Assembly: GCA_031261635.1 (NCBI GenBank)
Contig: JAISJH010000068.1
Location: 221 to 64,220, forward strand
Length of the DNA stretch: 64,000 nucleotides
Source of the DNA: Oscillospiraceae bacterium
GTDB lineage: Bacteria > Bacillota > Clostridia > Oscillospirales > Oscillospiraceae
Reading direction: 5' to 3'
Position 1 is the first letter of the stretch. Every line of letters starts with the position of its first letter. The translations under genes were made by a program, and so were the position numbers. The notes under the pieces were generated by a model. It made no database searches and had not been told where the DNA came from. It saw only the letters and a list, made by a program, of their open reading frames with translations. Shown here piece by piece: positions 3,531 to 54,128 of this stretch.

Positions 3531-3556
3531 CGCCTGCGGGCGGGAAGGGTTATTTT

Positions 3557-4305: not shown

Positions 4306-4320
4306 CAGGAGAAAAAACAA

Positions 4321-34752: not shown

Positions 34753-34801
34753 ATTGTACCATATAGCGGGGGAAAAGTCAACCGCCCCCGTGGGGGCGGT
34801 T
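34753..34801 (-). promoter_or_regulatory. cassette-end module: GC hairpin overlapping the -35 of a sigma-A promoter (drives gatCAB)
   Basis: On the minus strand, AACCGCCCCCACGGGGGCGGTT (34801-34780) runs into TTGACT (34781-34776), a 17-nt spacer, and TACAAT (34758-34753). The same module follows the other S-layer cassettes. Confidence 0.65.
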
Positions 34802-34831
34802 GTTGTGTACTATTGATTCTCGGTTAAATAA

Positions 34832-37800
34832 TTACGCTGCAAAAGTTACTGTAGCTCCAGAGTCAACCCAAGCAGATTCCGCGTAACCCGAGCTAGCCGG
34901 CGTTCTGATATAAATGCTTACTATTTGTGCCGTGAACGCGAACGCTTGCGCCGGCAGTATTGATACGGTATTCTCTCCTGATGCTAGCGTAGCAGGGGCA
35001 AGGTAACTCAAGTACGGGCAAGTAGTCAATGAGTAGGTAGAGTCAAAGGCAATGTACTCAAGCTCCGCAGACGTTGCGTCAAACGACGCTGTTCCTACTG
35101 TTGGTCCGCTAATACTTCCGGATGTCCCAGATGTGATTTTGGTAAGTGCTAATGGAACAGTCGCCTTAACAGGGTAATCTTCAGACGGGATTGTCAATAA
35201 CCAATAGTAGAAGCCCGCTACTGGTGTCCAATCATAGAATCCACCTTCATCTACTTTATAGTCAGTTACAAACTGTGCGTCAGCGTAGGTATACACAGCG
35301 GTTGCACCCACGATATCCGTGGCCTTGACTAATTCCAGCATTTCAGCTGCGGTTTTTGTCGGCGTTGACGATGTTCCCTTAAAATCGGGGTGTGTCGGGT
35401 CGCCGTAAGCGTAAACTTGTGCGCTTCCTGCTAGCGTTGAGCTTGCATAAATCGCGGGGTAGAACTCAGTATTGTCATTCCTGTAAAGCAATTCTACATA
35501 CGTTGTAGTAGCTGAATAACCTGCTGCGTCAAGGATAAAGCGGTTTGGCTTGATATTTGTATTCGCGGGGGCACTGCTTTTTACTATTGTATTTTTGTTG
35601 ATATAATTTAGCGTGTCTCCCACAACATAAGCGTAGTCTCCCGCTGCCGGTGCTGCCGCTACGACTCCGCTGGCAAGATACGCATATGGGGCAGTTGCAG
35701 CAGCATAATCAGCTGCTGTTTTTCCGGATACAAACTGAATTTTAGCTACTCCATCCGGATTGGCAGTAGTCGGGTTTATAACATATGTTACAGAACCGTC
35801 TGTTTCAGGTAAAGTGGTAACAAGGGTAATTAAACCCGCCCAATCGGGACTACGCTGGATTCCGTCCCAAGTTACAGCACCGGCAAATTCTTCTTTGTGG
35901 ATAATAAATTCTTTTACAGTTGCTTTTGTGCCAAAAAGGTCGATAGTACTAAGTGCAAGGATATTAAGCTGGTTAACCGCAAGCGGATAGATTACTTTGT
36001 CCCAGCCTGTGCCGACGTTTTTAAGGGGCTGTTTTTCAGTTGCCGGAGGTGCCGACGGATAAACAACTTGGACAAATGTTGTCGTATCAGAAGCGAAAAT
36101 CGGGTCGTGTATAGCGTTCGGGGTCAACGTAAGATTACCTATGTCAGAGCGTGCCGTAGGAACCGTTCCCGCATAGGGTTGAGAGGTGTTTGTCGACACC
36201 GCTGCAGCGATAGAGGACGTATTACCACCAATGGCAAACAGAGCTGTAGTTCCGCCGGTAGTGATGTACTCATAGAACGTACCTGCCACGGCCGGTTTCG
36301 TTACATTCCTTTTGCCGTTACCATTTATGGCTTCGGTTGTCAATTGGGTAATATTACCTTTTGTGCCGTCATCGTAGATAACGTCAACTGTTGCTCCGGT
36401 TGTCGGGGTTTTATATAGGTTGCTGCCGCTTGTACCTGTAACAACATATAGATACTTAGCAGTCGTGGCCGACCACGATTTGTCAATGATAGTCGCGGGA
36501 TTGAATACAACACCGTGCGAACCTTCGATTAACTGAACCTTGCCTTCGAGCGAGGTCATTTCAACTGAACCTACATCTACCGCGTTTTTATCATACCATA
36601 CAAACGCCGTAGCTGATACACTGTCAACGGTGTATGTTACACGGCGCAAAGTACGAACCTGCGACGTCACTGTAACAGATTTTGGAGCCGCATCATTGAG
36701 GTAGAGATAATTGCCGCTGGACGCCTTTTTCGCGCCAACGCTATACGCTCCGACCGCAGTCGTTACGATAGTGGATTTCGGAACTACGGTAAGGTCAAGA
36801 AGACTTTCTATGGCCGTTGTTCCGCCAAGTGTATTATTAACGAGGTCTTCAAAAATAGAAATTGTTTTATACTTAGTTTCGCCGTTGGAATCCACATAAG
36901 AAACTACATTCACATAAGTTCCAAGGACAAATTTATCTGCGTTTGTAGGCGCAACGCCGGTGAACGCGATTGATTTTGCAGCTTCATTGTCACCATTGAG
37001 GACTACATCGTTGAAATCAAGCGAGAAAGTCGTTGAACCGATGATTTTAGCAGGATATCCGGCATACGGATACGCGGGGTCGTTAAGACCTGCCGTAAAG
37101 CTTCCAAGGTTTTCATAATGCGGTACAAATCCCGCGATGTACTTTCCTGACCCCTCAGCGAAAGCGCTGGCACCTCTGCCCGTCGCGATAAGCGCGGTTC
37201 CGGGGTAGCCAAATGCGTCGTGAGCACTTTCAAATTGGGTATTTGTGAGTTTCGCATAGCTATAGTAATATTTAGGCGCACCACCCGACGCATTATTAGC
37301 TAATTCCAACTCTTTCGTAGCTAAAAGCGCGGTGCGGTTCGTGGTGTACGTGTTAATCTTTTGGCCTGTATACGTGTTTACGTCGCTTGTAACGCGGTTC
37401 GCTGTCATAGCGTTAACAAGGATTTGCGCCGCCTGTTCGTAGGTGATCGCTACGTTCGGTTCTGACACGTTAATGCCGTCGAACAGTCTCGCTTCCGCCG
37501 CATAGCGGATAATGTCAGTCTGAGCATACGTCCAGTCGTTGGAAAGCTCGTAGCCAAGCATTTTTACGAGAAGTCCAGTCCAACCAAGAACGGTGATATC
37601 TTTGTCCGGGCTGAAAGTCGGTCCGATATTGCTCGTGCCTGTCATAAAGCCCATAGCGTATGCCCAACCGTCGCCGTTGCCGAATTTAGTCGAATGGTCA
37701 ACGAACGGCGAAACATAGACGTTGCCGAGTTTTGCCCATTCTGTGGGAGTGTTGTAAGCTTTGGCGAGCAAGGTTGCCGCCGCGCCGCGTGTAAATGTAG

Positions 37801-37998
37801 CTTTAGGGCTGAACTCGCCTTTATCGTTGCCGCTGAAAATGTCTAAAGCGGTGACGACCATAGCGGCGTCATAATAGCCCGGGTCGATTTTATCGACGTC
37901 AGTCCACTTCGCGAGGGTCTCGCCGACGAGCTTTGCGTCAGCCCCGGTGCCGATTGTATAGTCGGCCTGTTTGTCGACTGCCGCGGCACTAGTTCCCC
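34832..37998 (-). CDS. silent S-layer (SLH-domain) protein cassette 1: no promoter, SD, start codon or signal peptide
   Basis: The frame is open from the 42-bp core (GTSAAAVDKQADYTIGTG...) to the stop at 34832, with an in-frame TAA at 38014-38012 just upstream of the core. The N-terminal about 230 aa aligns with the four paralogs (TFTRGAAATLLAKAYNTP; GDGWAYAMGFMSGT..FSP; LLVKMLGY; DIIRYAAEARLF..ITYEQAAQILVNA), giving three SLH-like repeats. Confidence 0.8.
37957..37998 (-). repeat. 42-bp recombination core site, copy 1 (silent)
   Basis: GGGGAACTAGTGCCGCGGCAGTCGACAAACAGGCCGACTATA (read on the minus strand), identical in all five copies. Confidence 0.85.
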
Positions 37999-38126
37999 AG
38001 GAATGTACCGTTTACAATATATGTCAGCAAAACTGGCCGCAAAGCTAGACGTTTAGGCGCGCAACGCTCGATTTGGGGCGTTTTGAAAACTCTCGAAACG
38101 CTTCAAAACAGACTCGTTTTGCCCTC
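37999..38126 (-). repeat. conserved non-coding leader of a silent cassette (copy 1)
   Basis: ...GTTTTGAAGCGTTTCGAGAGTTTTCAAAACGCCCCAAATCGAGCGTTGCGCGCCTAAACGTCTAGCTTTGCGGCCAGTTTTGCTGACATATATTGTAAACGGTACATTCCT. It is alignable with the leaders at 41468-41594, 46773-46877 and 50129-50255. Confidence 0.8.
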
Positions 38127-38170
38127 AAAAAGCCCTCCAAACGGTCGTTTTTTCGACCGTTCAGAGGGCT
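38127..38170 (-). terminator. intrinsic terminator upstream of silent cassette 1
   Basis: AGCCCTCTGAACGGTCG-loop-CGACCGTTTGGAGGGCT followed by TTTTT on the minus strand. Confidence 0.75.
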
Positions 38171-38189
38171 ATTTCAAGCTTGCAAAACG

Positions 38190-38378
38190 CTACAGCGAGG
38201 CCTTGACCCTTATGCTCTCATTGGCGATTTTAGGCTTGCGGCGGCGCGCCTCGCGGGCTAATCGCGCGTCGATTTTCGCCTTTTCCGCCTGGTACCACGG
38301 CTCGAGCGCTTCCCAATCCTTTCGAAAATTCGGGTTTTTCATATTTTCCTCGTGCCATTTTTCATAATTCAGCATCAT
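38190..38378 (-). CDS. HigA-like antitoxin remnant lacking the HTH domain
   Basis: N-terminus NPNFRKDWEALEPWYQAEKAKIDAR resembles the leader segment of XRE-type antitoxins that pair with Gp49/HigB toxins. Where the HTH should begin, the ORF continues as LAREARRRKPKIANESIRVKASL and stops. Start overlaps the toxin stop (ATGA). Confidence 0.5.
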   Translation of the reverse strand: MMLNYEKWHEENMKNPNFRKDWEALEPWYQAEKAKIDARLAREARRRKPKIANESIRVKASL

Positions 38379-38725
38379 TTTTTTGCTTTCCTTTCGAAGT
38401 AGATTTTTCTATAATTTTTTGCTTTTTCAATCTCTTTTTTGGGAGTTTTTTGTGTTTTTTTAATAAATCCGTTAGTAAAAACGATGCGTTTTCCAACATA
38501 AAAAAAGTATAGAACGCGGGTAATATCCGAGCCCTGTTTGGCTCTCAGCTCGAAAATTCCGTCGCCGAGCGGGCTCGAATGGGGCTCGCGAAGCGCGGGG
38601 CCGTTTTCGTGAAGCAGCTTCACCACGCGGTCGACCTTAGCCCACATTTTCCCGTCCAAAGCCCCGATAAACTCGCCGACCGGCGACTTCCCGTCCTCGG
38701 TTTCAAACAACTCAATCTCATACAT
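38375..38725 (-). CDS. Gp49/HigB-like RelE-superfamily toxin (copy 1)
   Basis: MYEIELFETEDGKSPVGEFI...GDGIFELRAKQGSDITRVLYFFYVGKRIVFTNGFIKKTQKTPKKEIEKA matches the phage Gp49-like (DUF891) addiction-module killer pattern. Confidence 0.8.
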   Translation of the reverse strand: MYEIELFETEDGKSPVGEFIGALDGKMWAKVDRVVKLLHENGPALREPHSSPLGDGIFELRAKQGSDITRVLYFFYVGKRIVFTNGFIKKTQKTPKKEIEKAKNYRKIYFERKAKK

Positions 38726-38744
38726 CGCGCCACCTCACACGTAC

Positions 38745-38793
38745 AGTATACCACAACCCCACAAAAAAGTCAACCGCCCCCGTGGGGGCGGTT
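38745..38793 (-). promoter_or_regulatory. cassette-end module: GC hairpin overlapping the -35 of a sigma-A promoter (drives toxin pair 1)
   Basis: AACCGCCCCCACGGGGGCGGTT (38793-38772), TTGACT (38773-38768), 17-nt spacer, TGgTATACT extended -10 (38750-38745). Confidence 0.7.
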
Positions 38794-38819
38794 TTGGGTA
38801 ATTACAAGTAACGTCTTTA

Positions 38820-41467
38820 TCAGGACATCTGTAACCCTATTGTATAGAACAGTTCGGGGCGCGATTTATCGTAGTCTGTACCCGTGAAGTGATACGTGTA
38901 CGAACCGTCCTGGCTCGAAGCATTATATCCGACATCTGTTAACACAAAGATATTTATTTGGTCAGCAGTCGGCGCGGCACTTACGGCTTCAAAGGTAGCC
39001 AAAGTCGGTACTATAGCCGCGCCAACTTGTGTCTTTCCTTCGTATGCTAATAGGGCACCTACAGACGCTGTCGTTTGCGATGCGGATTTTTCTACTATCT
39101 TTGTAATCGGTAAATAAGTTGTTGCGTCTGAGCCAATTGTCAAAGTATAGAATGTTCCGTCCGAGTCGGTTGAAATATCCGTAACAACGCCGAAGCCGGA
39201 AACGTGCGGCTTATCAGCCCATATGTCATAGTTTGGTTTGTCAGCGTCAGTAGAAGCCAACCCTACTCCGTTGTGTACTAAAAACGCTCTGCTTGCAACG
39301 GGATACAGCGACGGGACATATAGAATGTCAACTGTTCCGTCAGTTGCGTAAGCAATGTTCTGGTATCCGGTCGCGGCTCTTGTCGCAAGGTCATACCCAA
39401 ATTCGGGAGACGCGGACGCTGCCGGGTTCAACGCAACTTGTTTTACCGTCGTGGTTGAGGTAATACCTAAGGCCGTTCCGGGCGCCGTTTCATACTGCGC
39501 GTTTGTCCAGTTAGGAAGTGCGGGCCAAATTCCCGGGGTAGCCGTAGACGAACCTGCTGTCGGTGTGTTATCTTGTGTCGCAAGCTGTTTCGCAGAACCG
39601 AGCGAATTGCCGCCTAGTGCGAACAAGGCATATGTCCCGTCAGTCTGAACAACATATTCGTAGAATACGCCGTGTGTTGCAACTGCGGTTTCAAGTTCTT
39701 TAAGGTTCAAGCTGTTTGTTTTTCCGTTACCGTTGATTACAGAATTCTTTGCTGTAAGTCTGATGTTTTTGACAGAACCATCTTCGAGTATAACATATAG
39801 TGTTCCGTCCTCTGCCTGTTTCGCCGCAAGCGATATTCCTTGTGCGCCGGTGGCGACGCTTTTAATCGGAACATACAGGTAGGTGGCAGAATAGGCAGTC
39901 CACGTGGCGACTTTTGCGCCCTCAATGAAGTGCAGCGCACCGTGTTCGCCAATGATTGTGTTTACCTTTCCGTCAATGAAGTTCGCCTGATTTACTACCG
40001 CCAAGTCGGTCGCACCATAGGCGTCCAACGTTAATCCTGCTTTTATCGCGGTTTTTGCCGCGCCGTCGCTTGTATATGATACAGTACCCGCAGAATTACT
40101 ATAGCTCTTGACTGTAATTGAAACAGGTGTAACGGCTTTTGCCGCTAAATATTTTCCTGTCCAAGCATATGAATCCGTCGGAGCGGCAGTAGCCTGAACG
40201 CCAAGAACAAAGGTTTTTGCCGTACTCGGAAGGGTAGCAATTATACCGTCAGTAGTGTTTTTCACTTCATCGGCTGCCAAAAGTTTTACAGTAGCGGCAT
40301 AGGGTCCGGCAGACGGACCGTCATTCAGAATGATTGATTCAAAAATGCCGATTGTCTTGTAAAGTTCGCGCGAATCTTCGGTATATTTTACTAGTTCAAG
40401 GAAAGTTCCGTTCGGGACAGCAACGTTCGTCGCCCCCATAAAGTACAGATAAGTACTTGTAACAGTGGGTTCGGTCGAGCCATTCAGTATTAGTTCTTGT
40501 CCTGCGTTGTTCGACGCGTATGTCGAGTTATAAATTGTATCATCACCCGCCCACGCAAGGCCCGGGGCGGTCAATCCCGCAGTAAAGGAATCGACGACAG
40601 CGTAGTGAGGGACAAAACCCGTGATGTACTTTGTGCTTGTGCTAGAAATTCCACCGCTCCATTTTACTAACGCGGTTCCGGGATAGCCGAACGCGTCACG
40701 CGCGGCCGCGTTTATTCCGTCAGAATATAATGTCTCAAAACCGTAATAATATACCGGTTGCGGTCCGTTGTAACCTGATGTCGTGTCCTGTGTCTTTTGC
40801 AAAAGCGCGGTACGGTTTTGCATATATACATCGTACTGCTGTCCGGTGTATTGGTTGCGGTCGTTCGTTACTCGTTTCGCTTTAAGGGCGTTAACGGTAA
40901 TCTGCGCCGCTTGCTCAAACGTAACTTTTGCGGTCGGGTCAGTCACAGTGATACCTGAAAACAATTTCGATTCCGAAGCGAAGCGGATAATGTCGATTTT
41001 GTAGTTTTCAGTCAAGGTGTATCCGAGCATTTTAACGAGCATACCGGTGTACTCGAGAACGGTAATGTCGCGCGCCGGGGAAAATTCTGTCCCGGCTTTG
41101 TTGGTTCCGCTCATAAAGCCTAGAGCATACGCCCAGCCCGCTCCGTTAGCAGCGTAGCTTCCGTCAGTATCGGTGAACGGTGAAACATAGATAGGGCCAA
41201 GTTCAGCCCAAACTTTAGGCGTGTTGTAGGACTTGGCGAGCAAAGTAGCCGCCGCGCCGCGTGTGAAAGTTTTCTTAGCGTTGAAAGCTCCGTCAGTACC
41301 CTCAAAGATACCGAGAGCCGTCACGACCATAGCGGCGTCGTAGTAACCCGCGTCGATGTCGGCCGCGTCAGTCCACTTGGCGAGGGTCTCGCCGACGAGC
41401 TTCGCGTCAGCCCCGGTGCCTATTGTATAGTCGGCCTGTTTGTCGACTGCCGCGGCACTAGTTCCCC
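38820..41467 (-). CDS. silent S-layer (SLH-domain) protein cassette 2: no promoter, SD, start codon or signal peptide
   Basis: The frame is open from the 42-bp core to the stop at 38820. The N-terminal SLH-like region is conserved (TFTRGAAATLLAKSYNTP; AGWAYALGFMSGT..FSP; MLVKMLGY; DIIRFASESKLF..VTFEQAAQITVNAL). The C-terminal two-thirds are divergent. Confidence 0.8.
41426..41467 (-). repeat. 42-bp recombination core site, copy 2 (silent)
   Basis: Identical 42-mer, in frame with cassette 2. Confidence 0.85.
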
Positions 41468-41594
41468 AGGAATGTACCGTTTACAATATATGTCAGCGAA
41501 ATCGACCGCAAAGCTAGATTATTAGGCTCGCAACCCTCGATTTGGGGCGTTTCAAGTTGTCTCGAAACGCTTTAAAACAGCCTTGTTTTGCCCT
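41468..41594 (-). repeat. conserved non-coding leader of a silent cassette (copy 2)
   Basis: Alignable with 37999-38126. It ends ...GCTGACATATATTGTAAACGGTACATTCCT next to the core. Confidence 0.8.
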
Positions 41595-41640
41595 AAAAAA
41601 GCCCTCCAAACGGCCGTTTTTTTCGACCGGTTAGAGGGCT
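41595..41640 (-). terminator. intrinsic terminator upstream of silent cassette 2
   Basis: AGCCCTCTAACCGGTCG-loop-CGGCCGTTTGGAGGGCT followed by TTTTTT on the minus strand. Confidence 0.75.
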
Positions 41641-41659
41641 ATTTCAAGCTTGCAAAACG

Positions 41660-41845
41660 CTACAGCGAGGCCTTGACCCTTATGCTCTCGGCGGAGATTT
41701 TGGGCTTGCGGCGGCTCGCCTCGCGGGCTAATCGCGCGTCGATTTGGGCTTGTATTTGCTTGCCCCAGTCCTCGAGGGCGTCGTATTCTTTGCGAAATTC
41801 CGGGTCTTTTAATTGTTCCGCTAAATAATCTGAAAATTTTCTCAT
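41660..41845 (-). CDS. HigA-like antitoxin remnant lacking the HTH domain (copy 2)
   Basis: MRKFSDYLAEQLKDPEFRKEYDALEDWGKQIQAQIDAR, then the same tail LAREASRRKPKISAESIRVKASL as copy 1. Confidence 0.5.
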   Translation of the reverse strand: MRKFSDYLAEQLKDPEFRKEYDALEDWGKQIQAQIDARLAREASRRKPKISAESIRVKASL

Positions 41846-42195
41846 AATAAATTCCTCCTGTTTTCCCGGTATTCATCTCTGTATTTTTTTGCTTTTTCAA
41901 TTTCATTGGGCGGTATTTCCTGTGTTTTTTTGATAAAACCGTGCGTCAAAACCACAGTTTTTCCCTCGATAAAAAAGTACAGAACACGTGTAATATTCGA
42001 GCCGGACTGCGCTCGCAACTCCAAAATGCCGTCCCTCAAATACGCCGAATGCGGACGCCCGAGTTTTGGCCCGTTGTCGGCCAATTTTTCAATAACTTTA
42101 ACCATTTTTGTTCTCATTTTTTTGTCCAAAGAATTAAGAAATTCTTCGGCCGGCTTGTCGCCGTTGCCCTTTTCAAACAAAATAATCTCATACAT
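41842..42195 (-). CDS. Gp49/HigB-like RelE-superfamily toxin (copy 2)
   Basis: MYEIILFEKGNGDKPAEEFL...RDGILELRAQSGSNITRVLYFFIEGKTVVLTHGFIKKTQEIPPNEIEKA. Confidence 0.8.
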   Translation of the reverse strand: MYEIILFEKGNGDKPAEEFLNSLDKKMRTKMVKVIEKLADNGPKLGRPHSAYLRDGILELRAQSGSNITRVLYFFIEGKTVVLTHGFIKKTQEIPPNEIEKAKKYRDEYRENRRNLL

Positions 42196-42214
42196 CGCGC
42201 CACCTCACACGTAC

Positions 42215-42263
42215 AGTATACCACACCCCCGCAAAAAAGTCAACCGCCCCCGTAGGGGCGGTT
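42215..42263 (-). promoter_or_regulatory. cassette-end module: GC hairpin overlapping the -35 of a sigma-A promoter (drives toxin pair 2)
   Basis: AACCGCCCCTACGGGGGCGGTT (42263-42242), TTGACT (42243-42238), 17-nt spacer, TATACT (42220-42215). Confidence 0.7.
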
Positions 42264-42291
42264 TTGGTATCCGTTAGATTTATAGTTTAAT

Positions 42292-45200
42292 CTAAGGTGC
42301 CACGTATTCGTCGAGGTCTAGCCCCGCCCAGGTAAGGATCAGGAAGTTAGCTCCAACGATGTCATAGGATTCTGCTGTATTGGTTCCCATCATAAGGTCT
42401 AAGCTTCCGGCAGGTACCGGTCCGTACGCGATTGTGAAAGTCACGTCGCTAAGCAGGATTCCGCCGCCAATCGCTGTTCCGTCCGCTCCTGCGTAGTCCG
42501 TTCCATACCAGTCGTGCCACGGGTTATTTTCCGCCCACCACGCAAGGAAGTCAGTTTCGTCCAACGTTCCTTCCGGCTGATAAGCTTTATCTCCGTCGTA
42601 GCTTCCTTTTGGTGTCGAGCTGTATACACCACCCGTGAGGTCTGTCGACGAGAACATCGTCTGGTCTGCCGCCGCAAGTGCTTTACTTACATAGATTGCG
42701 GGGTAGAAGCCGTTTCCGGCGTTGTCAAGGACTTCGAGATAAACGGTTGTGTTCGAGTAGTCTTTACCGTCAAGAATTAGATATTCGTCTCCGATATTGC
42801 TGTCTGCCAAGGCAACCGGACTTGTTTTATACGTTGCGTTGTTGATGTAGTACAAGTCATATCCGGCAGTTTCCGAGCCGATTAGGTAACCGTAGTCGCC
42901 TTTTACCGGAACATTGGAGTTCGCCGCAATAATTGCTGAGGGTACCGCGTCATCACCTGTAACCGCAACAGTCTTGTTAATCGCCTTGTTAATCTTAATT
43001 CCTACGCCGTCCGAAGTATTTACGAGGTAGTGCGCGTTAGCACCTTTTCCCGCTGCCATAGCGTTTTCAATTTTGATTACGCGGTCAGGAGATACCACGC
43101 CGCTCGCCCAGTCTGCACCGCCTGAAGTTTCGAAATGTACAATAAATTCTTTAACGGCTGTGTTAGGCGTTACCGCGTTAAGTGCGAGTACGGCAAGCCA
43201 GCTTATGTTATCCGGGTAGATGATTTTGTTGTAGCCAACCCCGGTATTTTTTACAGGTGCTTTCCAGGAGGCGGTCGCTACTGTATCGTAAGGATAGATG
43301 ACCTGGGTAAAGGTTGTGGCCGCGTTGGTATAAACTGTTTGAGCCGTATACGCGCCCGGCATATCCGCTAGGAGATACCCGCCCCAGTTCGGCTTTGCGC
43401 CGGGGTCAGCAAGCGCCAGGTTTGCACGAGAGTCGTGTACGGTAACATACGGCGCCGCAGAGAAAACAGCAACCGCCGCCGCGCCGCCGGCCGGAGCCGC
43501 TACGTCAAACAGGTTTACTGTGCTGCCCGTTACAACAGTGTACTCATAGAATGTCGTTGCTTTAACATCGTCCGGGTCTAGATAGTTCTTTGCACCCGCG
43601 CCGTTGAGGGCTTCTTTGTCGCTAAGTGTGATTACTCCGATTGAACCGTCGTCGTAGATAACGTCGAACTGGTCGTCTTTAAGCGTGTCGCTTCTGTCAG
43701 ACGCGAACAGGTTACTCTCTACCCCGGCAAGTGCAGGGATAAACAGATACTTCGCGCCGAGAGCCGTCCACGTTGTGTCTACGCTGGTACCCGCGTTGTA
43801 CAGAACGCCGTGCGAGCCGATTACGAGTTTGAAGCGTCCTTCGACCGCCGTTGATTCTGTCCCGAGAGCGGAACCCTGGAAGTTGTTGTCAAGTCCGGTA
43901 GCGGTTACGCCGTCAACTACATATGTTATACGTCCGAGTGTCCGTATATTGCTCGTTACCGTGACAACCTGTTCTTTCGCTCCCTCTGCGTAGAAGTAAA
44001 CGAAATCTTTAGATGTCGCGCCGGAGTTTGCTTCGTCCTTAATGTACAGAGCGAAGGAACCGACATCGACTGTAGCTTTAGCGTTTTTGGCCGCAAGCAG
44101 CGGGCTGAGTTTGTATTCGGTAGCCGCCGTAAGAGCCGCGGCGCTTGCCGTCTCTTTGAAAGCGACGTCCTTGTAGTTCAGTTCGCCGGACGCGTCGGTG
44201 TAGCTAACCACATCAACGTAGGTGCCAAGTAAGAATCCGCCTGAAAGACGTTCCGGGTGGTCTACCGCTCCGACTTTCACGGAGTTCTTAATTGCGCTAA
44301 GCGTAGTTACCGCGCCGTTAAGTACGATACCGCCGCCGGTCGTTTTGACAGCCGCCGCGTGACCGGAGGAACCGGCTGTGCTAAGCGTTGTAAGCCCCGC
44401 TGTAAAGTCGCCTACACTTGTAAAGTGCGGTACAAAACCCGCGATATAGCCCGCGCTGTAGGTATTGTTAGCCGCTTTAAGAATTAGAGCTGTTCCGGGA
44501 TAACCGTATGCGTCGTGAGCCTCAGCCGCTGTCGCTGTACGTGTCAGCGTAGCCAAAGTATAGTTGTACTTTCTCGCGTCTATTATAGTAGAGGTAGGCG
44601 CAATCGTACCGTCGTAAAGCAACGGTGTACGGTTAACCGAATACGTGTCATAATTCTGACCTGTATACGAGTTACGGTCACTTGCTACGCGGTCTGCCTG
44701 TAGCGCGTTAACCATAATCAGTGAGGCCTGTTCGTAGGTAATCTTTGCGTTCGGGTCAGAGATAGTGATACCTCTGAATAGGTTCGCTTCACTCGCAAAG
44801 CGAATGATGTCGGTCTTATAATTCTCGGTAAGCGTATAGCCGAGCATTTTAACCAACATACCGGTAAACTCGATAACGGAAATCTCGCGTTTGGGGCTGA
44901 AATAAATCTGCCCGCCGGCACTTCCGGTACCGCTCATATACCCGAGTGCATACGCCCAGCCGTCGCCGTTGCCGTAATCACTAACGTGGTCAACAAACGG
45001 TGAGACATAAATGTCGCCGAGCTGTTCCCAGGTAGCGGGCGTGTTATACGCTTTAGCGAGCAACGTAGCCGCCGCGCCGCGTGTAAAGGTGGTTTTTGGG
45101 GTAAGCTCCTTATTGGTATTACCCGTGCGGATACCAAGAGCCGCTAAAACCATTGTAGCGTCGTAATAGCCCGCGTCAAGCTCCGCGATATCGGTAAACT

Positions 45201-45345: not shown

Positions 45346-45352
45346 TTTGTTT

Positions 45353-45460
45353 TCCTCCTAATGTTAGGTGAATTTTTTGTACGCTTGCATTTTACCACAC
45401 TATTCCCGAATATGTCAAGAGGCAAAAGCATATTGTAACAGAACTGTAACATTAGGAGGA
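45353..45460. repeat. perfect 14-bp inverted repeat bracketing the S-layer promoter
   Basis: TCCTCCTAATGTTA at 45353-45366 and TAACATTAGGAGGA at 45447-45460. The proximal arm contains the SD of the expressed gene. Confidence 0.8.
45389..45418 (-). promoter_or_regulatory. strong sigma-A promoter of the S-layer expression site
   Basis: On the minus strand: TTGACA (45418-45413), 18-nt spacer, extended -10 TGgTAAAAT (-10 hexamer 45394-45389). Confidence 0.75.
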
Positions 45461-45479
45461 TATTTAGAAAAATTATCCG

Positions 45480-46643
45480 CTACGCCACAAAAACCTCCTT
45501 CATATATTCATAATACAGCATAGCCGCCTCGCGCTTCTGCTCCGGCAAGACGTCAATGTAGATTGAGTGGACGTCGCCGCCGCCGCGGTGTCCCATAAGC
45601 TCGCGGCAGACGCTCTCCTTGACCCCGGCGGCCTCCATATAGGTGCCGTAGCTATGGCGGAACAGGTGAAAATGAACAGCGCGGGGGTTAATTCCCCGCG
45701 CTGTCCAAAACCTGCTGATTGCGTTGCGTAAGCCGCTGTAGCTGTAAATCTCGCCGAATTTATTCGGGAACACGAGTTTTTGGCCGCCGCTGTCGGCTTT
45801 TCGTTTCCGCAGCATTTTCAGCAGGGATTTGTGAACGTAGATGTCGCGGGCCGAACCCTCGGTTTTGGGGCCTCCGACGCGCCCCTTGTATTCGTCGGAG
45901 CTTTGCGCGGGGTCGGGAACGCGCTTGTAGGCTTTGACGACGCGAATGTAACCCAGCTCGAAGTTAATATTGCCGTATTCAAGCGCGATAACCTCCCCGA
46001 TACGCATACCGGTATGCAAAAGCGTGAGAATTATAGGCGCGTAGGTGCTGTTATCGCGAACCTCGCGAAGCGCGGTCTTAAGCGTCTCAAAGGGAATAGC
46101 CGCGGCGCGGTCGCGCTCGATTTGGGATTTTTTACCATTCAAAAAGTTTTTTAGAAAGCGCATAGGACTGCGCCGGATAATGTTTTCCTCGAGAGCTATG
46201 TCGAAAATGCGGTTTAATAGAAATTTTATTTTTAATAATATTGAAATACTTGGAGTTTGTCCGTTTTTTAATTGCACATTTTTGAAAAATTCTTTAATAT
46301 CGTCGGGGTTTATGTCCTCGATAAATACGCCTTCAAAACCGGGAAATCTGTAAATATAAAGTAAATAATATTCGTAACCCGCGAGGGTCGTGGCCTCCTG
46401 TTCGTCCTTGATAATTGATTCGTAGGCGTATTTCGCGTAGTCTGTAAGAGGGTGCTTCCCGGCGGCCGTATCGCCCGCCGCAAAGCGTTCTAGCTCCCTC
46501 GCATGAATGTATTTTCCGCAAACGACGGTGAGTTCCTTGTGTTCGGTAAGCTCGGAAATAATAGAGGTTTTAAGTCCCAAAATTTTCCCGGATTCCCGAA
46601 ACGTGTACAAAAGTTTTTCCTGCGGCATTCTTTCCTGTGGCAT
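45480..46643 (-). CDS. tyrosine-type site-specific recombinase (phage integrase family), candidate S-layer cassette invertase
   Basis: Catalytic signature LLHTGMRIGEVIAL (Arg), HLFRHSYGTYM (His-x-x-Arg), and LMGHRGGGDVHSIYIDV (His...Tyr). ATG at 46643 follows AAGGAG. The track ORF start at 46712 lies in the promoter. Confidence 0.85.
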   Translation of the reverse strand: MPQERMPQEKLLYTFRESGKILGLKTSIISELTEHKELTVVCGKYIHARELERFAAGDTAAGKHPLTDYAKYAYESIIKDEQEATTLAGYEYYLLYIYRFPGFEGVFIEDINPDDIKEFFKNVQLKNGQTPSISILLKIKFLLNRIFDIALEENIIRRSPMRFLKNFLNGKKSQIERDRAAAIPFETLKTALREVRDNSTYAPIILTLLHTGMRIGEVIALEYGNINFELGYIRVVKAYKRVPDPAQSSDEYKGRVGGPKTEGSARDIYVHKSLLKMLRKRKADSGGQKLVFPNKFGEIYSYSGLRNAISRFWTARGINPRAVHFHLFRHSYGTYMEAAGVKESVCRELMGHRGGGDVHSIYIDVLPEQKREAAMLYYEYMKEVFVA

Positions 46644-46682
46644 AGTGTAGAAATCTCCTTTAATAATAAAAATGTAAGAGCT

Positions 46683-46712
46683 ATTATAACGGAAAATGTA
46701 GGCAATTGTCAA
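46683..46712 (-). promoter_or_regulatory. sigma-A promoter of the recombinase gene
   Basis: TTGACA (46712-46707), 18-nt spacer, TATAAT (46688-46683). It shares the 14-nt TTTGCCTCTTGACA with the S-layer promoter. Confidence 0.7.
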
Positions 46713-46772
46713 GAGGCAAATGTAGAAAAAAGTCGAAAGGTAGGCGGGAGCGAGGCGAAAAGGCGGCGAAAC

Positions 46773-46877
46773 GAAGCGTTTCGAGAGTTTTCAAAACGCC
46801 CCAAATCGACGGTTGCGAGCCTAAACGTCTAGCTTTGCGGCCAATTTCGCTGACATATATTGTAAACGGTACATTCG
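46773..46877 (+). repeat. conserved non-coding leader of a silent cassette (copy 4, no terminator)
   Basis: GAAGCGTTTCGAGAGTTTTCAAAACGCCCCAAATCGACGGTTGCGAGCCTAAACGTCTAGCTTTGCGGCCAATTTCGCTGACATATATTGTAAACGGTACATTC. It is 1 nt shorter before the core than the other leaders. Confidence 0.8.
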
Positions 46878-46919
46878 GGGGAACTAGTGCCGCGGCAGTC
46901 GACAAACAGGCCGACTATA
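46878..46919 (+). repeat. 42-bp recombination core site, copy 4 (silent, inverted relative to the expression site)
   Basis: GGGGAACTAGTGCCGCGGCAGTCGACAAACAGGCCGACTATA on the plus strand. Confidence 0.85.
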
Positions 46920-49798
46920 CAATAGGCACCGGGGCTGACGCAAAGCTCGTCGGCGAGACCCTCGCGCAATTTGCCGACATCGCGGACCTCGACGCGGGGT
47001 ATTACGACGCTACGATGGTTCTCGCGGCTCTTGGTATCCGCGCGGGTAATCCTAACAAGGAACTCACCCCTAAAACCACCTTTACGCGCGGCGCGGCGGC
47101 TACACTTTTAGCCAAAGCGTACAATACGCCCGCCACTTGGGAACAGCTCGGCGAAATTTATGTCTCACCGTTTGTTGACCACGTTGGTGATTATGGAAAC
47201 GGCGACGCTTGGGCATATGCTCTCGGCTTTATGAGCGGCACCGGAAGCGCGGGCGGGCAGCTCTATTTCAGCCCCAAACGCGATATTTCCGTTATCGAGT
47301 TCACAGGTATGCTGGTTAAAATGCTCGGTTACACGCTTACCGAGAGCTACAAGACCGACATAATCCGCTTTGCGAGTGAAGCGAATCTGTTCAATGGTAT
47401 CACGATATCCGACCCCAGCGCGAAAATCACCTATGAACAGGCTTCGCTGATTATGGTTAACGCGCTGAAAGCGCCCCGCGTAGCGAGTAACCGCAACGAG
47501 TATACGGGTCAGAAGTATGACACGTATTCGCCTAACCGCTTACCGTTACTTAGCGAAAAAAAGACCGGTGATAACTTGACTTATGGCGCGCTTACAGACA
47601 TCAAGTATAATTATTCCTTTGGTGGGAACGACGCGTTCGGCTATCCCGGAACTTCGCTGGTTGCAATTACAAAATCCAGTATTGCGAACAAAGACCAAAT
47701 CCTTGGTTTCGTCCCGCATTACACATTTGAAACTTCGTACACCCAAGGCTTGAACCGCCCGGTCGCGGGTCCGACTACGCTCCCCGGAACTGCGGCACTT
47801 GAGGCCGTTCAGCCAATAGAAGTGTTTGAGAACGGTGAGGCAGCGGAGTACGGTCTTGATTTCGCAAACGCGTCAACTTATGTTCCTGCGAATGGAACGT
47901 ATGCGGAAGTCGTTTCGTATACCGCAAATGACGGCACGACTAAATTCCGCACCGTATCCGTTTTGGAAACTCTGGTTGCTCAGGGCGCATATGACGCTGA
48001 AAAAGTATTTTCCGGTGCGACGTCAGTGGGCGGGCAAAAACTCTTAACATTTGCAGCTTACACACCCGGTTATGCTCTTGTTGCCTATACCGCGACGGCT
48101 ACAGCGGGTCCGGTTTTATCGGCACGCGCTGTCACCGCAGAAAAGAAAAACATCACTACAATAATCGGCTCAAAATTTACCGCAAAAGATGTTGATGGTA
48201 CAACTACTTCCACATACGTAAGTGCGAAGTTGGCTGACAAAACGGTTCCTATTGCTGCCGATGGCTTTACACCGTTTGTATCAGTTAGTGGTTTGAAAGA
48301 TACCACCGGTATATTTGAAGTGGTACTCGGTGAACACGGCGAGTTATTCTACGCGAATGACCCGGCTACAACGTGGTCGTGGGCAACGGCAAAATATCTG
48401 TTTGTTCCTGACCAGAGCAGTGCAATTGCCACCGCGGTTGCTACAAACGTAGCAAGTACGCAAACGGTACTCATTTTGGAGGACGGAACGGTTGTCAAAG
48501 GTGTTATTGCGGCGGCTAAAACAGCAACGAGCCAACATAATACACTAAACGTTGTTCCGGGTGTTTCAGCAAACCTGTTTAATACATTCTACGAGTATGA
48601 AATAGTAAACGGAGAATATGCTCTTTATGCGCTGACGGGGGCGATAGACACAACATACGCATATACTGTTACTGGGGCGACTGCGGGCGCCGTGTCCCCG
48701 GGGCTAAACCCCTCGCTTGGACTGGCGCAAAGCGGAACTGTCGCAGGTGTCCCTCTTACCGCCTTGACTAGCATTAAACAAATAGGCGTCAAAACCGGAA
48801 CGCCTCCGTCTGCTGGTGTCACAAATGTCAAAACACAAACGCTGACAGGCTATCATAAAGTAAAAACATCAGCCACAGGCGGGTCGTACATTTTAGAAGT
48901 ATATACGCCGCTAGCACCCGGACAATATTCAACACGAGCTGTTTGGATTTCTGCCGACGCTATAGGACACGGCGATATTACAACCCCGGCGTTCAAAGCT
49001 ACAGGATATGCGCTTGGGTTGCCATATGGGAACTTTGCTTGGTATGCGGAGCCCATTTACACAGTGGGCGATACCACGTATGACATCTACATTTACAACA
49101 CCACCACATACGCATACGCGAAACTTTTCAATACATCAGATACTACTTTTGCCGGAAAAGTGAGTGGCCAAGATAACGGCATACTCGCATATAACGAAAC
49201 AGAAGTGCAAATTCTGGACGCTACTTATTTCGTAGCAAAAATCGGAACAATAACGGCAGATAACGTTAGCATATTTACTGACATAGGCGGACCTGTGACC
49301 TATGCGCGTACTACGGTTGATTCTCCCAAAATCGACCAAACTGGCGCACAGTTGTTCTTATCTGCTACTCCGTCGACTTTGACTACAATTAACGCAACCG
49401 CTTCTGACGCAATCGCAACTATCCAAGCTACCGCTACAGCCACTGCGGCGGTCATAGGCGGCTACGCGAAGGCCGCGGCATGTCCGGCGTTAGCAAGCGC
49501 TACAGCGTTCAAAACAAATACAAGTAATGTTTGGACTGCTGCGTCATTGAACAATCTTGCCGACCATCTAATCCTATGGGAACCCCTGTGGACGGCGATT
49601 GAATCTAAGTTAAATTCTGACGCGACAAACGAAGCAAAAACCGCTGAACAAACCTATGCTGACGCAATAAAATTCTTGAACGCCGCTAGCGCGGAAGTCG
49701 CATTGAATACCAAGAACAGTACGGATATCAACGTAGCGCGTACTAAACTAGACGCATTTTTAACTGGTAAAATAGCTTGGCTTGACGGTATATCCTAA
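46878..49798 (+). CDS. silent S-layer (SLH-domain) protein cassette 4: no promoter, SD or signal peptide
   Basis: GTSAAAVDKQADYTIGTGADAKLVGETLAQF..., then the conserved SLH-like region and a divergent C-terminal part. The track ORF extends upstream to a TTG at 46706 through the leader and the recombinase promoter (basic junk sequence MSRGKCRKKSKGRRERG, no signal peptide). Confidence 0.8.
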
Positions 49799-49820
49799 AA
49801 CAATTCCGCAATCACCAACA

Positions 49821-49869
49821 AACCGCCCCCACGGGGGCGGTTGACTTTTTTGTAGAGGTGTGGTATACT
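49821..49869 (+). promoter_or_regulatory. cassette-end module: GC hairpin overlapping the -35 of a sigma-A promoter (drives the small ORF)
   Basis: AACCGCCCCCACGGGGGCGGTT 49821-49842, TTGACT 49841-49846, 17-nt spacer, TGgTATACT (TATACT 49864-49869). Confidence 0.7.
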
Positions 49870-49900
49870 AAAAGCACCAACAACATAGGAGGGCTACATT

Positions 49901-50074
49901 ATGGCTAAAAACGCGGCGGAAATTTCAGCGAGGGCTTTGCGAGCAAACACGCTTCGCGAGATAAGAGATACATTGCTCATCATAAAGCCCGGCGAATTAG
50001 AAAAATTGCCGGAGGAAATCGACAAACTCGCCGAAGCACTCAAAAAAGAAGCCGACGAGCTTACGAAAATCTAG
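49901..50074 (+). CDS. small hypothetical helical protein (57 aa)
   Basis: ATG at 49901 follows TAGGAGGG. MAKNAAEISARALRANTLREIRDTLLIIKPGELEKLPEEIDKLAEALKKEADELTKI. It sits between a promoter and a terminator in the position the toxin pairs occupy on the other arm. It falls below the ORF-track length cutoff. Confidence 0.45.
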   Translation: MAKNAAEISARALRANTLREIRDTLLIIKPGELEKLPEEIDKLAEALKKEADELTKI

Positions 50075-50082
50075 CGTGAAAT

Positions 50083-50128
50083 AGCCCTCCAAACGGTCGA
50101 AAAAAACGGCCGTTTGGAGGGCTTTTTT
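50083..50128 (+). terminator. intrinsic terminator upstream of silent cassette 5
   Basis: AGCCCTCCAAACGG-loop-CCGTTTGGAGGGCT followed by TTTTT. Confidence 0.8.
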
Positions 50129-50255
50129 AGGGCAAAACGAGGCTGTTTTGAAGCGTTTCGAGAGTTTTTGAAAAGCCTCAAATCGACGGCTGCGAGCCTA
50201 AACGTCTAGCTTTGCGGCCAATTTTACTGACATATATTGTAAACGGCACATTCCT
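50129..50255 (+). repeat. conserved non-coding leader of a silent cassette (copy 5)
   Basis: ...GTTTTGAAGCGTTTCGAGAGTTTTTGAAAAGCCTCAAATCGACGGCTGCGAGCCTAAACGTCTAGCTTTGCGGCCAATTTTACTGACATATATTGTAAACGGCACATTCCT, with an in-frame TAA before the core. Confidence 0.8.
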
Positions 50256-50297
50256 GGGGAACTAGTGCCGCGGCAGTCGACAAACAGGCCGACTATA
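50256..50297 (+). repeat. 42-bp recombination core site, copy 5 (silent, inverted relative to the expression site)
   Basis: Identical 42-mer on the plus strand, in frame with cassette 5. Confidence 0.85.
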
Positions 50298-53200
50298 CCG
50301 TAACCGGCGCGGCCAACTCCGGGCTTATCGGCGAGACGCTCGCTAAGTGGAAAGACGCTGACAAAATCAGCGCGGAGTATCTTGACGCCGCTATGGTTGT
50401 CACCGCTCTTGGTATCTTCAGCGGTACTGATACTGACAATGACGGTATCGGCGATACTTTCAACGCCGCGACAACATTCTCGCGCGGCTCCGCGGCTACT
50501 TTGCTTGCGAAAGCCTATACTACGCCCGCAACCTGGGAAAAGACACAGGGCGCGTATGTTTCGACCTTCACCGATACCGGCACGCAGGGTCAGTACCCCG
50601 CAACCGGCGCGGGCTGGGCGTATGCATACGGCTTTATGAGCGGCACGAACGCCGGCGGGACGCAGTTTAGCCCCGACCGTAAAATCACACAGCTTGAGTA
50701 TGCGGGAATGCTCGTGAAAATGCTCGGCTACCACCTCACCGATAATTACAAAACCGACATCGCGCGTTTCGCTAACGAAGTCGGACTGTTCTCGGGGATT
50801 GACAACATCAACCTCACAGAGCTGATTACCTACGAACAGGCGGCAAAAATCACCGTCAACGCGCTGCTCGCGCAACCGGTTTACAACGACCGCGACAAGT
50901 ACACAACATCTGTCGACGTGTACGAACCGCGCCCGAACTATGCTCCCTTACTTTCGAGTAACCCGACTTTAGGAATACAGGGTATCAAATACCGCGCCAC
51001 CTACTCACAAATCGACGACGTGGCAGATCCGTATCCGCTTAACGCGCGTGACGCCTTCGGTTATCCCGGAACCGCGCTTACATATACTAACGGATACATC
51101 GCCGGCTTTGTACCGCACTATACCGTAATCGGAAAAGGTACTAAGGGGCTGACCGCAAGTTATATCTATTCCGCAGGTCCTACGGGTTATTTCCGCCCGG
51201 ATGGTACGGCTTATGACTTCCAAGACCAATATTTCAATAATGGAACTAGTGGCACTTATCCGTGGAACACAACGACATATGCTGACGAGGCCGTACGCGG
51301 AACCTATGGCGAACTTGTAACGTACACAGATTATCAAGGTAAAACAAAATATCGCTTGGTTGAGGTGTATGAAACTACCGACAATATTACAAACGGAACA
51401 ACTACAACCCAATTGACTTATGATATATCAGTAGAACCAAAAGCTTCAAAAACGACTTTCCCGGCTAACAGCCTTGTCAGTCGTGTAACGAAAGGTGCTT
51501 CTGTCATTTCAGCTAAAGTTGTTACGCCTGTGGTCGCGTCCGTGCTTTCGTACACAACTGCGGACGGATATCAAAACACAGCGACCCTATCAATTGACGG
51601 TAAAACTGTGTCAGCAGTTGCGATTAGTACGATAAACATATCGGACGTACATTTCGTAAGTGACAAAATTACTGTTTATGTAGGTGACCACGGTGACATA
51701 CAATGGCAGAAAAACGTGAAGGATTCCACGTGGTCAGCTGCTACTGCCGATTATCTCTACGTCCCGGAGACTGCAATTGCTGCGGGAGGTTACTTGGGCG
51801 TAGCTCATACCGTAGATAATTCGTTTGATGTAGTTTTAGATAGCGGTAAGGTAGTAACTCAAATCAAAATCGCTAAAGCGGGAACGACAGTAAATGGAAA
51901 CGGTATAACCAACGTTGCAAACAACATTTACGACAAATTCTTTGAATACGTAATTCAATCGGATGGAAGTTATGCACTCTTTGTGCCGTATTTAAGCACA
52001 GCGTATGCCCCTAACTTGGCAATTGCCTCGGCAACTGCAAAATCTTATACTGTTGTTGACCCGGCATTCACGAATGCTAACCCGACGGCAAAAGTTGGCG
52101 CGGTTAACGTAAGTCAAGTAAAAAATAATAGTGGATTTGCCTTAAATAACGCAATATTAGGCTCAAACACGACAACAGAAATCAAATCAGTTTATATAAA
52201 CACAGACACGACGAGTGGCGCTTATAATCCTGCTAACCTAAGTGGACCAATAGGAACTTATACGACTGTAGGATACCAAAACTTAGTATTCCCCGTAGTA
52301 GTTGGCGCGTCAATACGTGTTCTTACGGCTATTGATAACCCATATGAGATGGCGGCGGCCGGAACAGCAAAAAAATTGTTCTCCGTTCATTTGGGAACGA
52401 CGGCATTGACAGCCACAGGATCAAACGTAGTTGGTTGGACATCTTCGCTTCTTCCTGCGAAATACGCGACTACAGTAGCGAAAGTAACAAACGCAAATGG
52501 AGTATACAGCATTTATTCAAATGCGTTTGGAAGTTCTATTGACTATCCGGCATATGATGTTCTCGTTGGTACTACAACAGCGAGCACCGTAGGTGGAGAA
52601 ACACCGGCTGTTGGACAGTACGCCGTGTTTAATGAAACGGATTACTGGCTTGCAACTAAGGAAATGTTTGACGTGTCTGTTATATCGGCAACAATAAACG
52701 CTACAACAGACCAAGCACTCTCACTCGGTTCACCTGCTTCGGGTTACTACAGAGCAAAAGATACTAACGCCATTTTGCCAGACAACTTCTATGTAACTGT
52801 CGCTGGATTTGAAAAGCTTAGTGGTAACGCTATATATACTAACGGCAACGGACTGAAAAATTATATTGACAATTTGGGTAAAACCGCAGATGCTGCTGTT
52901 AGTGCTGCGTTCGAACAGGCCTTTTATGTTACCTTTATGCCGGAAGGCCCCGCAAAGGTAGCAGCTTCTGCTGCTGCGTCCAATGCCATAGCGAGCGCGA
53001 GCGCCGGACAGGTTTCTGCAAGAGCAGCAGCAATTACTGAAGCAAAAAGACTTGTTCCGACAGTTGCCGCGAAACCCGCTCTGTATGCGGAGATTGTCGA
53101 CACTACTGCAGGAAAAACAGACGCGACCCAAAAAACCGCTATTGAAGCATTAGTCAAAGATGTGTTTGGGGTTACTACTATCAACGGTGCCTTAGACGAT

Positions 53201-53401
53201 TGGCTTGTCGATTGGGTGTACCCGACTTGGTCTGGTAGTGCGGTTTACACCACGGCACCATTTGACACTGAAGCTAATTTCCAGGCATACGTTGTCACAC
53301 AATTAGAAGCTGCGTTGAACGCGTATGTCGGTACCGGAGGTGTCGCTGGTAAAGCTTCCGCAACAGATATCGCCACATTTATCAAGACGCTTATAGCGTA
53401 A
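50256..53401 (+). CDS. silent S-layer (SLH-domain) protein cassette 5: no promoter, SD, start codon or signal peptide
   Basis: GTSAAAVDKQADYTVTGAANSGLIGETLAKW..., then the SLH-like region (TFSRGSAATLLAKAYTTP; AGWAYAYGFMSGT..FSP; MLVKMLGY; DIARFANEVGLF..ITYEQAAKITVNAL) and a divergent C-terminal part. Confidence 0.8.
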
Positions 53402-53426
53402 CGAAATCCTGCGGCGACGCAAATAG

Positions 53427-53453
53427 ACAGCCCCCCACGGGGGGCTGTTGACT
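53427..53453 (+). terminator. cassette-end hairpin (degenerate copy; -35 present, no -10)
   Basis: ACAGCCCCCCACGGGGGGCTGT, then TGACTTTTT. It lies between the convergent cassette 5 and the methylase-like gene. Confidence 0.55.
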
Positions 53454-54097: not shown

Positions 54098-54128
54098 TAG
54101 TAAAATATTGGGAACGCAATCTTTAGTT

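Follow-up and report, generated by a model that had tools for sequence, protein, structure and literature searches.

We propose that an 18.7-kb block of DNA from an uncultured, gut-type member of the Clostridia labelled Oscillospiraceae bacterium in GenBank is, or recently was, a recombinase-driven inversion switch for its major SLH surface protein, a reading that we hold to be probable. The block lies within a stretch of 64,000 nt (the window), itself part of a 64,917-nt contig of a metagenome-assembled genome, and contains five long reading frames, three minus and two plus, numbered here as cassettes 1 to 5 (Table 1; GenBank lists MDR0936459, MDR0936462, MDR0936465, MDR0936466 and MDR0936467 among the proteins of the locus). 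Cassette 3 stands at a complete expression site, the other four are silent as they lie, and a tyrosine recombinase gene is placed between cassettes of opposite orientation. All parts of this arrangement are intact and the layout is conserved in a relative. From these features we infer that the DNA between cassettes inverts, that this recombinase is the catalyst and that the crossover falls within a short sequence common to the five copies.

Architecture of the cassette locus

A sequence-only reading of this stretch had placed five paralogous genes for SLH-type, S-layer-like proteins in one block, three minus and two plus, and this assignment is borne out by the family searches. All five frames, of 881-1054 codons, match the Pfam SLH family (PF00395) above the gathering cut-off, with three SLH repeats in the N-terminal ~200 aa of each protein, and a weak match of the surface protein in the PDB is to the SLH domain of B. 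anthracis Sap. The five proteins are of 93-111 kDa with a pI of 4.5-4.8 and 0-1 Cys, and are rich in Ala, Thr, Gly and Val, which is the classic profile of S-layer proteins, typically ~100 kDa, acidic and nearly Cys-free (PMC3666127).

Only one of these frames can be expected to be expressed where it lies. A promoter scan finds a promoter (TTGACA-18-TAAAAT with an upstream TG), a ribosome binding site (RBS), an ATG and a signal peptide solely at 42292..45345 on the minus strand, with AGGAGG 8 nt ahead of the ATG and a signal-peptide exon of 22 codons, and by BLAST against the window the ~200-nt piece that carries promoter and signal peptide (45279-45479) is unique. The two methods agree on the single expressed copy that had been named before.

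Each of the five frames has at its 5′ end an exact copy of a 43-nt sequence, GGGGAACTAGTGCCGCGGCAGTCGACAAACAGGCCGACTATAC, hereafter the core, three copies being in minus and two in plus orientation; no further copy at ≤3 mismatches is present in the window, and 0 are expected in shuffles. A sequence shared by the 5′ ends had already been described as 42 bp long; the sharing holds, while the length is corrected to 43 nt. In the sole complete gene the core encodes GTSAAAVDKQADYT, which spans the c-region of the signal peptide and the start of the mature protein, and in the alignment the identity common to all five copies is limited to this sharp 43-nt block. Its best dyad, AGTCGAC-AAACAG-GCCGACT, has 6/7 matching arm positions around an asymmetric 6-bp spacer, and would be compatible with a core-type site of a tyrosine recombinase.

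The four silent copies have in common a leader of ~105 nt, which precedes the core and is 92-95% identical between copies. Alignment and frame analysis confirm the description of this leader as non-coding, with in-frame stops in three copies: the leaders of cassettes 1, 2 and 5 each hold three, at the same distances from the core, and directly upstream of these same three leaders lie the expected intrinsic terminators, strong hairpins of -26 to -33 kcal/mol followed by a T-run. Leader 4 has a deletion of 1 nt that takes these stops out of the cassette frame, and the reading frame of cassette 4 extends up to a TTG at 46706; for this extended frame no RBS and no signal peptide were found. A role of the leader as a structured regulatory RNA was considered and dropped, the fold not being significant (z=-0.5). 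The cassettes beyond the core are open throughout, as had been claimed for the four silent ones, with zero internal stops across 881-1054 codons each. Protein identity among the five is 33-43%, reaching 63-75% in the SLH anchor and falling to ~20-30% over the distal 700-850 residues, with synonymous sites between cassettes saturated and dN/dS at ~0.2-0.4. Frames that are untranslatable in place have yet remained open over this large divergence, from which it would follow that the cassettes are periodically expressed in another arrangement; no other indirect argument for switching is as strong.

The recombinase gene separates the expression site from the nearest cassette on the opposite strand and lies within the smallest segment that could invert (1.6 kb). 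Its product matches PF00589 (E=4.5e-18), and the residues given in Table 1, which we take to be catalytic from the motifs TGxRxxE, HxxRH, GH and Y, are invariant in an alignment with three known relatives; its promoter matches the consensus at 12/12 positions in the promoter scan. The earlier call of a tyrosine recombinase with its own promoter beside the expressed copy therefore stands on family match, catalytic residues and promoter alike. As a separate observation, an identical 14-nt stretch, TTTGCCTCTTGACA, surrounds the -35 box of both the expression promoter (45405-45418) and the recombinase promoter (46707-46720); this could be the site of a common regulator, or simple promoter similarity.

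Model for switching and competing explanations

In our model the segment 45279-46877 would act as a two-faced module, with the expression promoter and signal-peptide exon at one end, leader 4 at the other, and between them the recombinase gene under its own promoter. The recombinase would pair two oppositely oriented 43-nt cores and exchange strands inside them, leading to inversion of the DNA between, such that the promoter and signal-peptide exon would be fused in frame to another cassette and the formerly expressed cassette would receive a leader, with stops and no start codon. If cores 3 and 4 exchanged strands, a segment of 1599 nt would be inverted, with the promoter and signal peptide going to cassette 4 and the leader to cassette 3; for cores 3 and 5 the inverted segment would be 4977 nt long, and cassette 5 would be activated. 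Both distances match the ~1.6 kb and ~5.0 kb of the first estimate. An exchange between silent cores (e.g. 2 and 4) would flip the expressed unit whole, after which cassettes 1 and 2 would become partners and all five would be reachable; the route of serial inversions proposed before is topologically correct. Every such fusion would keep the reading frame and be exportable, since the signal-peptidase region and the start of the mature protein both lie in the core. The exposed ~700-850 aa would be swapped for sequence that is 20-30% identical, on an SLH anchor (~200 aa) that stays similar, and the likely purpose would be escape from phages, predators or host immunity targeting the S-layer.

The model also offers a role for the genes between the cassettes. 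Putative toxin-antitoxin (TA) pairs, each a HigB/Gp49-like toxin and a small partner ORF with their own promoter, occupy the intervals between cassettes 1 and 2 (38190-38725) and between cassettes 2 and 3 (41660-42195), in the order of a promoter overlapping the preceding cassette terminator, the toxin, an overlapping ORF of 61-62 aa and a strong terminator. The toxins match PF05973 (E~1e-25) and, weakly, TIGR02683, and the partners have neither a family match nor a helix-turn-helix (HTH); the two pairs have diverged from each other, with toxins 58% and partners 59% identical. The 61-aa partner also precedes a cassette in a contig from a related sample (L003, 1-320). The interval between cassettes 4 and 5 has the same frame of promoter and terminator, but a 57-aa ORF in place of a TA pair. 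Since the TA intervals are exactly the DNA that would be lost if cores in the same orientation recombined, we propose that these diverged HigB-like pairs may penalise cassette deletion by direct-repeat recombination. A stabilising role is ascribed to toxin-antitoxin cassettes in chromosomal integron arrays, which the proposed lock would parallel.

All static predictions of the inversion reading that were tested hold, whereas the defining inversion event was not observed in public data, and several observations weigh against the model. Neither an inverted isomer nor the signal peptide joined to cassette 1, 2, 4 or 5 was found among 5.8 billion proteins and the contig collections. The source contig was assembled unbroken through the locus, from which it would follow that one isomer dominated in the sample and that switches may be rare, or no longer occur. 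Among named invertase families the recombinase has no match at E≤0.01, and in NCBIfam it reaches only Xer-like models, far below their cut-offs. The symmetry of the core dyad is modest (6/7 arms) and statistically not compelling, and two cores of a related sample differ by 2 nt in the middle; should these belong to one genome, the functional site would be shorter than 43 nt. The AlphaFold models are poor for both the S-layer protein (pLDDT 41) and the recombinase (pLDDT 43). Finally, cassette 4 is a mosaic at its 5′ end: for ~45 nt after the core it is near-identical to cassettes 1 and 2, and over the ~600 nt that follow it shares 84% identity with cassette 3 (46921-47556 against 44612-45231, with 37900-37955 also compared), a sign that homologous exchange between cassettes is at work here as well.

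This last point leads to the rival explanation that survives best, namely that the cassettes recombine by way of RecA, or convert one another, through their conserved 5′, and possibly 3′, regions, much as in Campylobacter fetus sap or in archives of the pilE/pilS type, and that the integrase is not the catalyst. The mosaic of cassette 4 speaks for it, as do the 5′ ~600 nt of the cassettes, which are 72-84% identical, and the ~30-57-nt 3′ terminator element shared by cassettes 1-4, with which both flanks needed for cassette replacement exist; the homogenisation of the leaders to 92-95% also requires some form of conversion. Conversion would nevertheless leave unexplained why identity across all copies takes the form of a sharp 43-nt block, short for RecA and typical of a site-specific target, and why an intact orphan recombinase with its promoter sits inside the invertible module both here and in a relative. 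Cassettes on both strands, moreover, are needed for inversion and irrelevant for conversion. We regard this route, by RecA or by conversion, as a real if unlikely rival.

It seems less probable still that the locus is a fossil or a rarely used archive, built as a shufflon and now locked, with cassette 3 constitutive and the others decaying. The single assembled arrangement, the lack of an alternative junction in the databases searched and the 1-nt deletion in leader 4 would fit such a locus, and very low switching rates are known for S-layer switches. Decay, however, is not visible in any part: the five cores are still exactly identical, the silent frames are open over ~1000 codons, and the recombinase keeps every catalytic residue and a perfect promoter.

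That there is no switching, and that these are ordinary SLH paralogues with unrecognised starts of their own, as annotated in GenBank, beside an integrase left by a mobile element, is very improbable given that the silent copies lack a signal peptide although they encode wall-anchored extracellular proteins, that terminators lie directly upstream of three of them, that the GenBank models of cassettes 1 and 2 (1040 and 867 aa; loci 34832-37996 and 38820-41465) begin 14 codons after the frame enters the core, at ATC or ATA, with the model of cassette 4 (46706-49798) starting at a TTG, without an RBS, within the recombinase promoter region, and that no tRNA, phage gene, gene of an integrative and conjugative element (ICE) or other mobile-element gene and no att-like context was found near the locus, which makes a stray integrase unlikely. 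The lack of a tRNA also speaks against a classic integrative element. Automatic annotation hides the cassette nature of such loci.

Related loci and known switching systems

The recombinase of the locus has few relatives. An exhaustive HMMER search of 1.84 billion representatives with the recombinase returned one cluster at 57% identity and the next at 36%, the remaining matches being ≤33% identical bar a few short partial ones. Relatives in GTDB genomes are only 23-27% identical and have no inverted repeats around them, the metagenome contig collection holds no relatives, viral contigs gave only remote matches, and a PDB sequence search gave none. No named model of an Rci-type recombinase matched at E≤0.01, the presence of an Rci model in the library being unconfirmed, and the core, as far as it could be compared, does not resemble sfx-type sites. 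By these comparisons the recombinase appears to be an orphan lineage, nearly unique. The 36%-identical relative (P0012) lies beside KAP-NTPase and resolvase genes and not S-layer genes, so that the link with S-layer cassettes does not extend beyond the close clade of the recombinase. The core gave 0 matches both in an exact and degenerate DNA search of the metagenome contig collection and in a degenerate protein-level search of the genome contig collection, and a search with the full expressed protein, signal peptide included, returned only the genes of the window itself and one cassette of a relative; extra members of its protein cluster are models of the window genes from a second gene caller.

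JGI sample 3300042601 is the sole source of close relatives of the recombinase. In contig L001, which encodes a recombinase 94% identical to that of the window, the layout is the same: a silent cassette, capped by a leader and a variant of the core, is oriented away from the recombinase gene, and an expression promoter 92% identical to that of the window lies downstream of the recombinase. The core variant differs from the core of the window at 5 positions; the core is homogenised within each genome, and the 5 differences between genomes are mostly synonymous. In contig L003, of the same sample, a toxin fragment is followed by the putative antitoxin (61 aa), then by leader and core, and then by a cassette of 959 aa. 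No cassette of L001 or L003 is more than 49% identical to any in the window, yet the recombinase is 94% identical, a sign of strong diversification in the exposed part. The machinery is conserved and the repertoire wholly different, as would be expected for a surface protein under diversifying pressure.

Some further features of these contigs stand apart from the comparison. L001 carries three tandem AAATTTCCCCC motifs (3795-3845) just upstream of the conserved expression promoter, which are absent from the window. The end of this contig just before the signal-peptide ATG was considered as a sign of assembly branching and rejected; the branch point of a shufflon would be at the far side of the core. 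In contig L002 an inverted repeat of ~45 nt (1-45 and 1290-1337), with terminator hairpins in it, lies on either side of the recombinase paralogue of 57% identity; an Ala/Thr-rich gene points its 3′ end towards this recombinase, whose placement relative to putative cassettes differs. In L003 the terminal cassette is followed by four consecutive small ORFs of 55-60 aa (3411-4373).

Among known systems the closest mechanistic match is the vsa locus of M. pulmonis with its recombinase HvsR, in which inversion puts a promoter, RBS and 5′ coding segment before the 3′ part of a silent gene (PMC2268961). As here, there is one expression site with promoter, RBS, start and N-terminal segment, the silent genes are truncated at the 5′ end, the coding region contains a short conserved site and a tyrosine recombinase is adjacent. 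The vsa system is reportedly also covered by Bhugra 1995, Shen 2000 and Sitaraman 2002. The two differ in their targets, mycoplasma lipoproteins there and ~100-kDa SLH-anchored proteins of Clostridia here, and in the constant exon, of 714 nt there and of 22 codons plus the core here; the recombinase inside the invertible module, the leader cap and terminators on the silent copies and the interleaved TA pairs are found only here. Inversion is proven for vsa, whereas here it is deduced from sequence. In M. agalactiae vpma and M. bovis vsp, switched by Xer1/Mbr, phase-locked mutants prove the role of the recombinase (PMC2268961). These share with our locus a multigene family for surface proteins, a single promoter, a terminator after each gene and an adjacent tyrosine recombinase, but their sites lie in the 5′ UTR (untranslated region) and each gene keeps its start and signal peptide, whereas here the site is in coding sequence and the silent copies lack both.

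Clustered sites in both orientations and a tyrosine recombinase are also shared with the shufflon of R64 and other IncI plasmids, which differs in its short segments (hundreds of bp), paired C-terminal exons and plasmid location from the whole chromosomal cassettes of ~3 kb described here. There, Rci fuses the constant N-terminal part of a surface protein, encoded by pilV, to alternative C-terminal parts. For S-layers, C. fetus sap is said by Dworkin & Blaser (1996-97) to comprise S-layer homologues with a conserved 5′ end and a single promoter on an invertible segment, subject to nested inversions by which any of the homologues can reach the promoter. Switching there is mainly by RecA over ~600-bp conserved regions, with no dedicated recombinase, and the proteins, which have no signal peptide, leave by type I secretion; what sets the present locus apart from the sap type is its sharp 43-nt site, the recombinase encoded within the segment and the exon for a Sec signal peptide. 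The recombinase gene and the promoter also travel inside the invertible segment in the case of Hin, a serine recombinase, and in B. thetaiotaomicron a recombinase-driven promoter inversion controls an S-layer lipoprotein that is not of SLH type. Both these systems, like Gin, are ON/OFF or two-state promoter flips, without coding fusions to a multi-cassette archive. In L. acidophilus a chromosomal inversion places a silent S-layer gene at the single expression site of slpA/slpB (PMC3666127); there are two genes, with non-SLH anchoring and no dedicated recombinase described in the segment, against five cassettes and a recombinase here. The claim of novelty made before was overstated, the mechanism being that of M. 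pulmonis vsa. For an SLH S-layer shufflon or cassette system no description was found in the literature searched, apart from an enrichment line in PMC9881135, where PilV is listed as a top target.

Genomic setting and significance

The coordinates of the features are collected in Table 1. The block is flanked by housekeeping genes (for GatCAB, a HemN-like protein and PriA): genes of gatCAB type lie on one side and, on the other, a truncated tetrapyrrole methylase gene, a radical-SAM gene and priA. The methylase ORF (53464-53943, minus strand) spans only positions 2-143 of the 212-position Pfam model, and its truncation beside the end of cassette 5 may mark the insertion point of the S-layer block. 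Between this gene and the radical-SAM gene lies an element built of a 42-nt AT-rich repeat, AGTTAACAGTTAKCAAATATCAAATATYAGAGRCG, at 54114-54595, with 2 copies in one orientation and 4 in the opposite one, surrounding a very GC-rich, internally palindromic spacer of ~215 nt; it has no Rfam match, and zero matches to Rfam families were found anywhere in the window.

Table 1. Features of the cassette locus, in window coordinates; stop positions are counted from the core.
Feature	Coordinates	Strand	Remarks
Cassette 1 terminator	34773..34801	-	same hairpin as after cassettes 2-4
Cassette 1 body	34832..37955	-	silent, SLH S-layer-type; 1054 codons core to stop, 0 internal stops
Core site 1	37956..37998	-	43 nt, exact
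Silencing leader 1	37999..38104	-	in-frame stops -16, -28, -49
Intrinsic terminator ahead of leader 1	38127..38170	-	-30.8 kcal/mol, T-run
Putative antitoxin 1	38190..38378	-	62 aa, no HTH; 4-nt overlap with toxin stop
HigB/Gp49-like toxin 1	38375..38725	-	PF05973, E=7.7e-25
Cassette 2 terminator (38793..38772) overlapping TA pair 1 promoter	38745..38793	-	promoter TTGACT-17-TATACT with TG
Cassette 2 body	38820..41424	-	silent; 881 codons from core, 0 internal stops
Core site 2	41425..41467	-	
Silencing leader 2	41468..41572	-	in-frame stops -16, -28, -49
Intrinsic terminator ahead of leader 2	41595..41640	-	-26.2 kcal/mol
Putative antitoxin 2	41660..41845	-	61 aa; 59% identical to antitoxin 1
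HigB/Gp49-like toxin 2	41842..42195	-	PF05973, E=4.1e-26; 58% identical to toxin 1
Cassette 3 terminator overlapping TA pair 2 promoter	42215..42263	-	
Cassette 3 body	42292..45235	-	now at expression site
Core site 3 (expression site)	45236..45278	-	encodes GTSAAAVDKQADYT
Signal-peptide exon	45279..45345	-	MTTKRILSLVLALTMIVGMFAFG; unique in window
Expression promoter and RBS	45346..45418	-	TTGACA-18-TGgTAAAAT (45418..45389); AGGAGG
Tyrosine recombinase	45480..46643	-	387 aa; R214 K260 H326 R329 H352 Y362
Recombinase promoter	46683..46712	-	TTGACA-18-TATAAT, 12/12
Silencing leader 4	46773..46877	+	1-nt deletion, stops out of frame; no upstream terminator
Core site 4	46878..46920	+	
Cassette 4 body	46921..49798	+	silent; 972 codons from core; first 620 nt 84% identical to cassette 3
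Cassette 4 terminator overlapping promoter	49821..49869	+	promoter TTGACT-17-TATACT; unit as at TA modules
57-aa ORF	49901..50074	+	in position held elsewhere by TA pairs
Intrinsic terminator ahead of leader 5	50083..50128	+	-32.8 kcal/mol
Silencing leader 5	50150..50255	+	in-frame stops -16, -28, -49
Core site 5	50256..50298	+	
Cassette 5 body	50299..53401	+	silent; 1047 codons from core
Cassette 5 terminator	53426..53449	+	

In many Firmicutes the S-layer is the outermost coat, and serves as a main phage receptor and a main target of host antibodies. What is new here is the SLH S-layer target in Clostridia, the orphan recombinase lineage, the leader cap and the interleaved TA pairs, the mechanism being already known from vsa; a two-faced expression module that carries its recombinase, together with TA locks, would be features not described for inversion systems. 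We suggest only tentatively that the locus represents the first described class of recombinase-driven multi-cassette S-layer shufflons in uncultured Clostridia, with such a module and with TA deletion locks. Were this so, the whole exposed part of the coat would be replaced to escape phages or immunity, and the locks would kill cells that delete cassettes. The interleaved pairs provide a testable idea of how inversion systems guard against deletion. The 43-nt site and the small orphan recombinase would also make a compact new inversion tool. In annotation, loci of this kind may pass for ordinary genes with unusual start codons, which is what occurred in this case. If the switch is active, phage-host modelling, metagenome strain tracking and assembly would be affected; one cell line of this organism would display five coats, 20-30% identical in their exposed part, on the same wall anchor.

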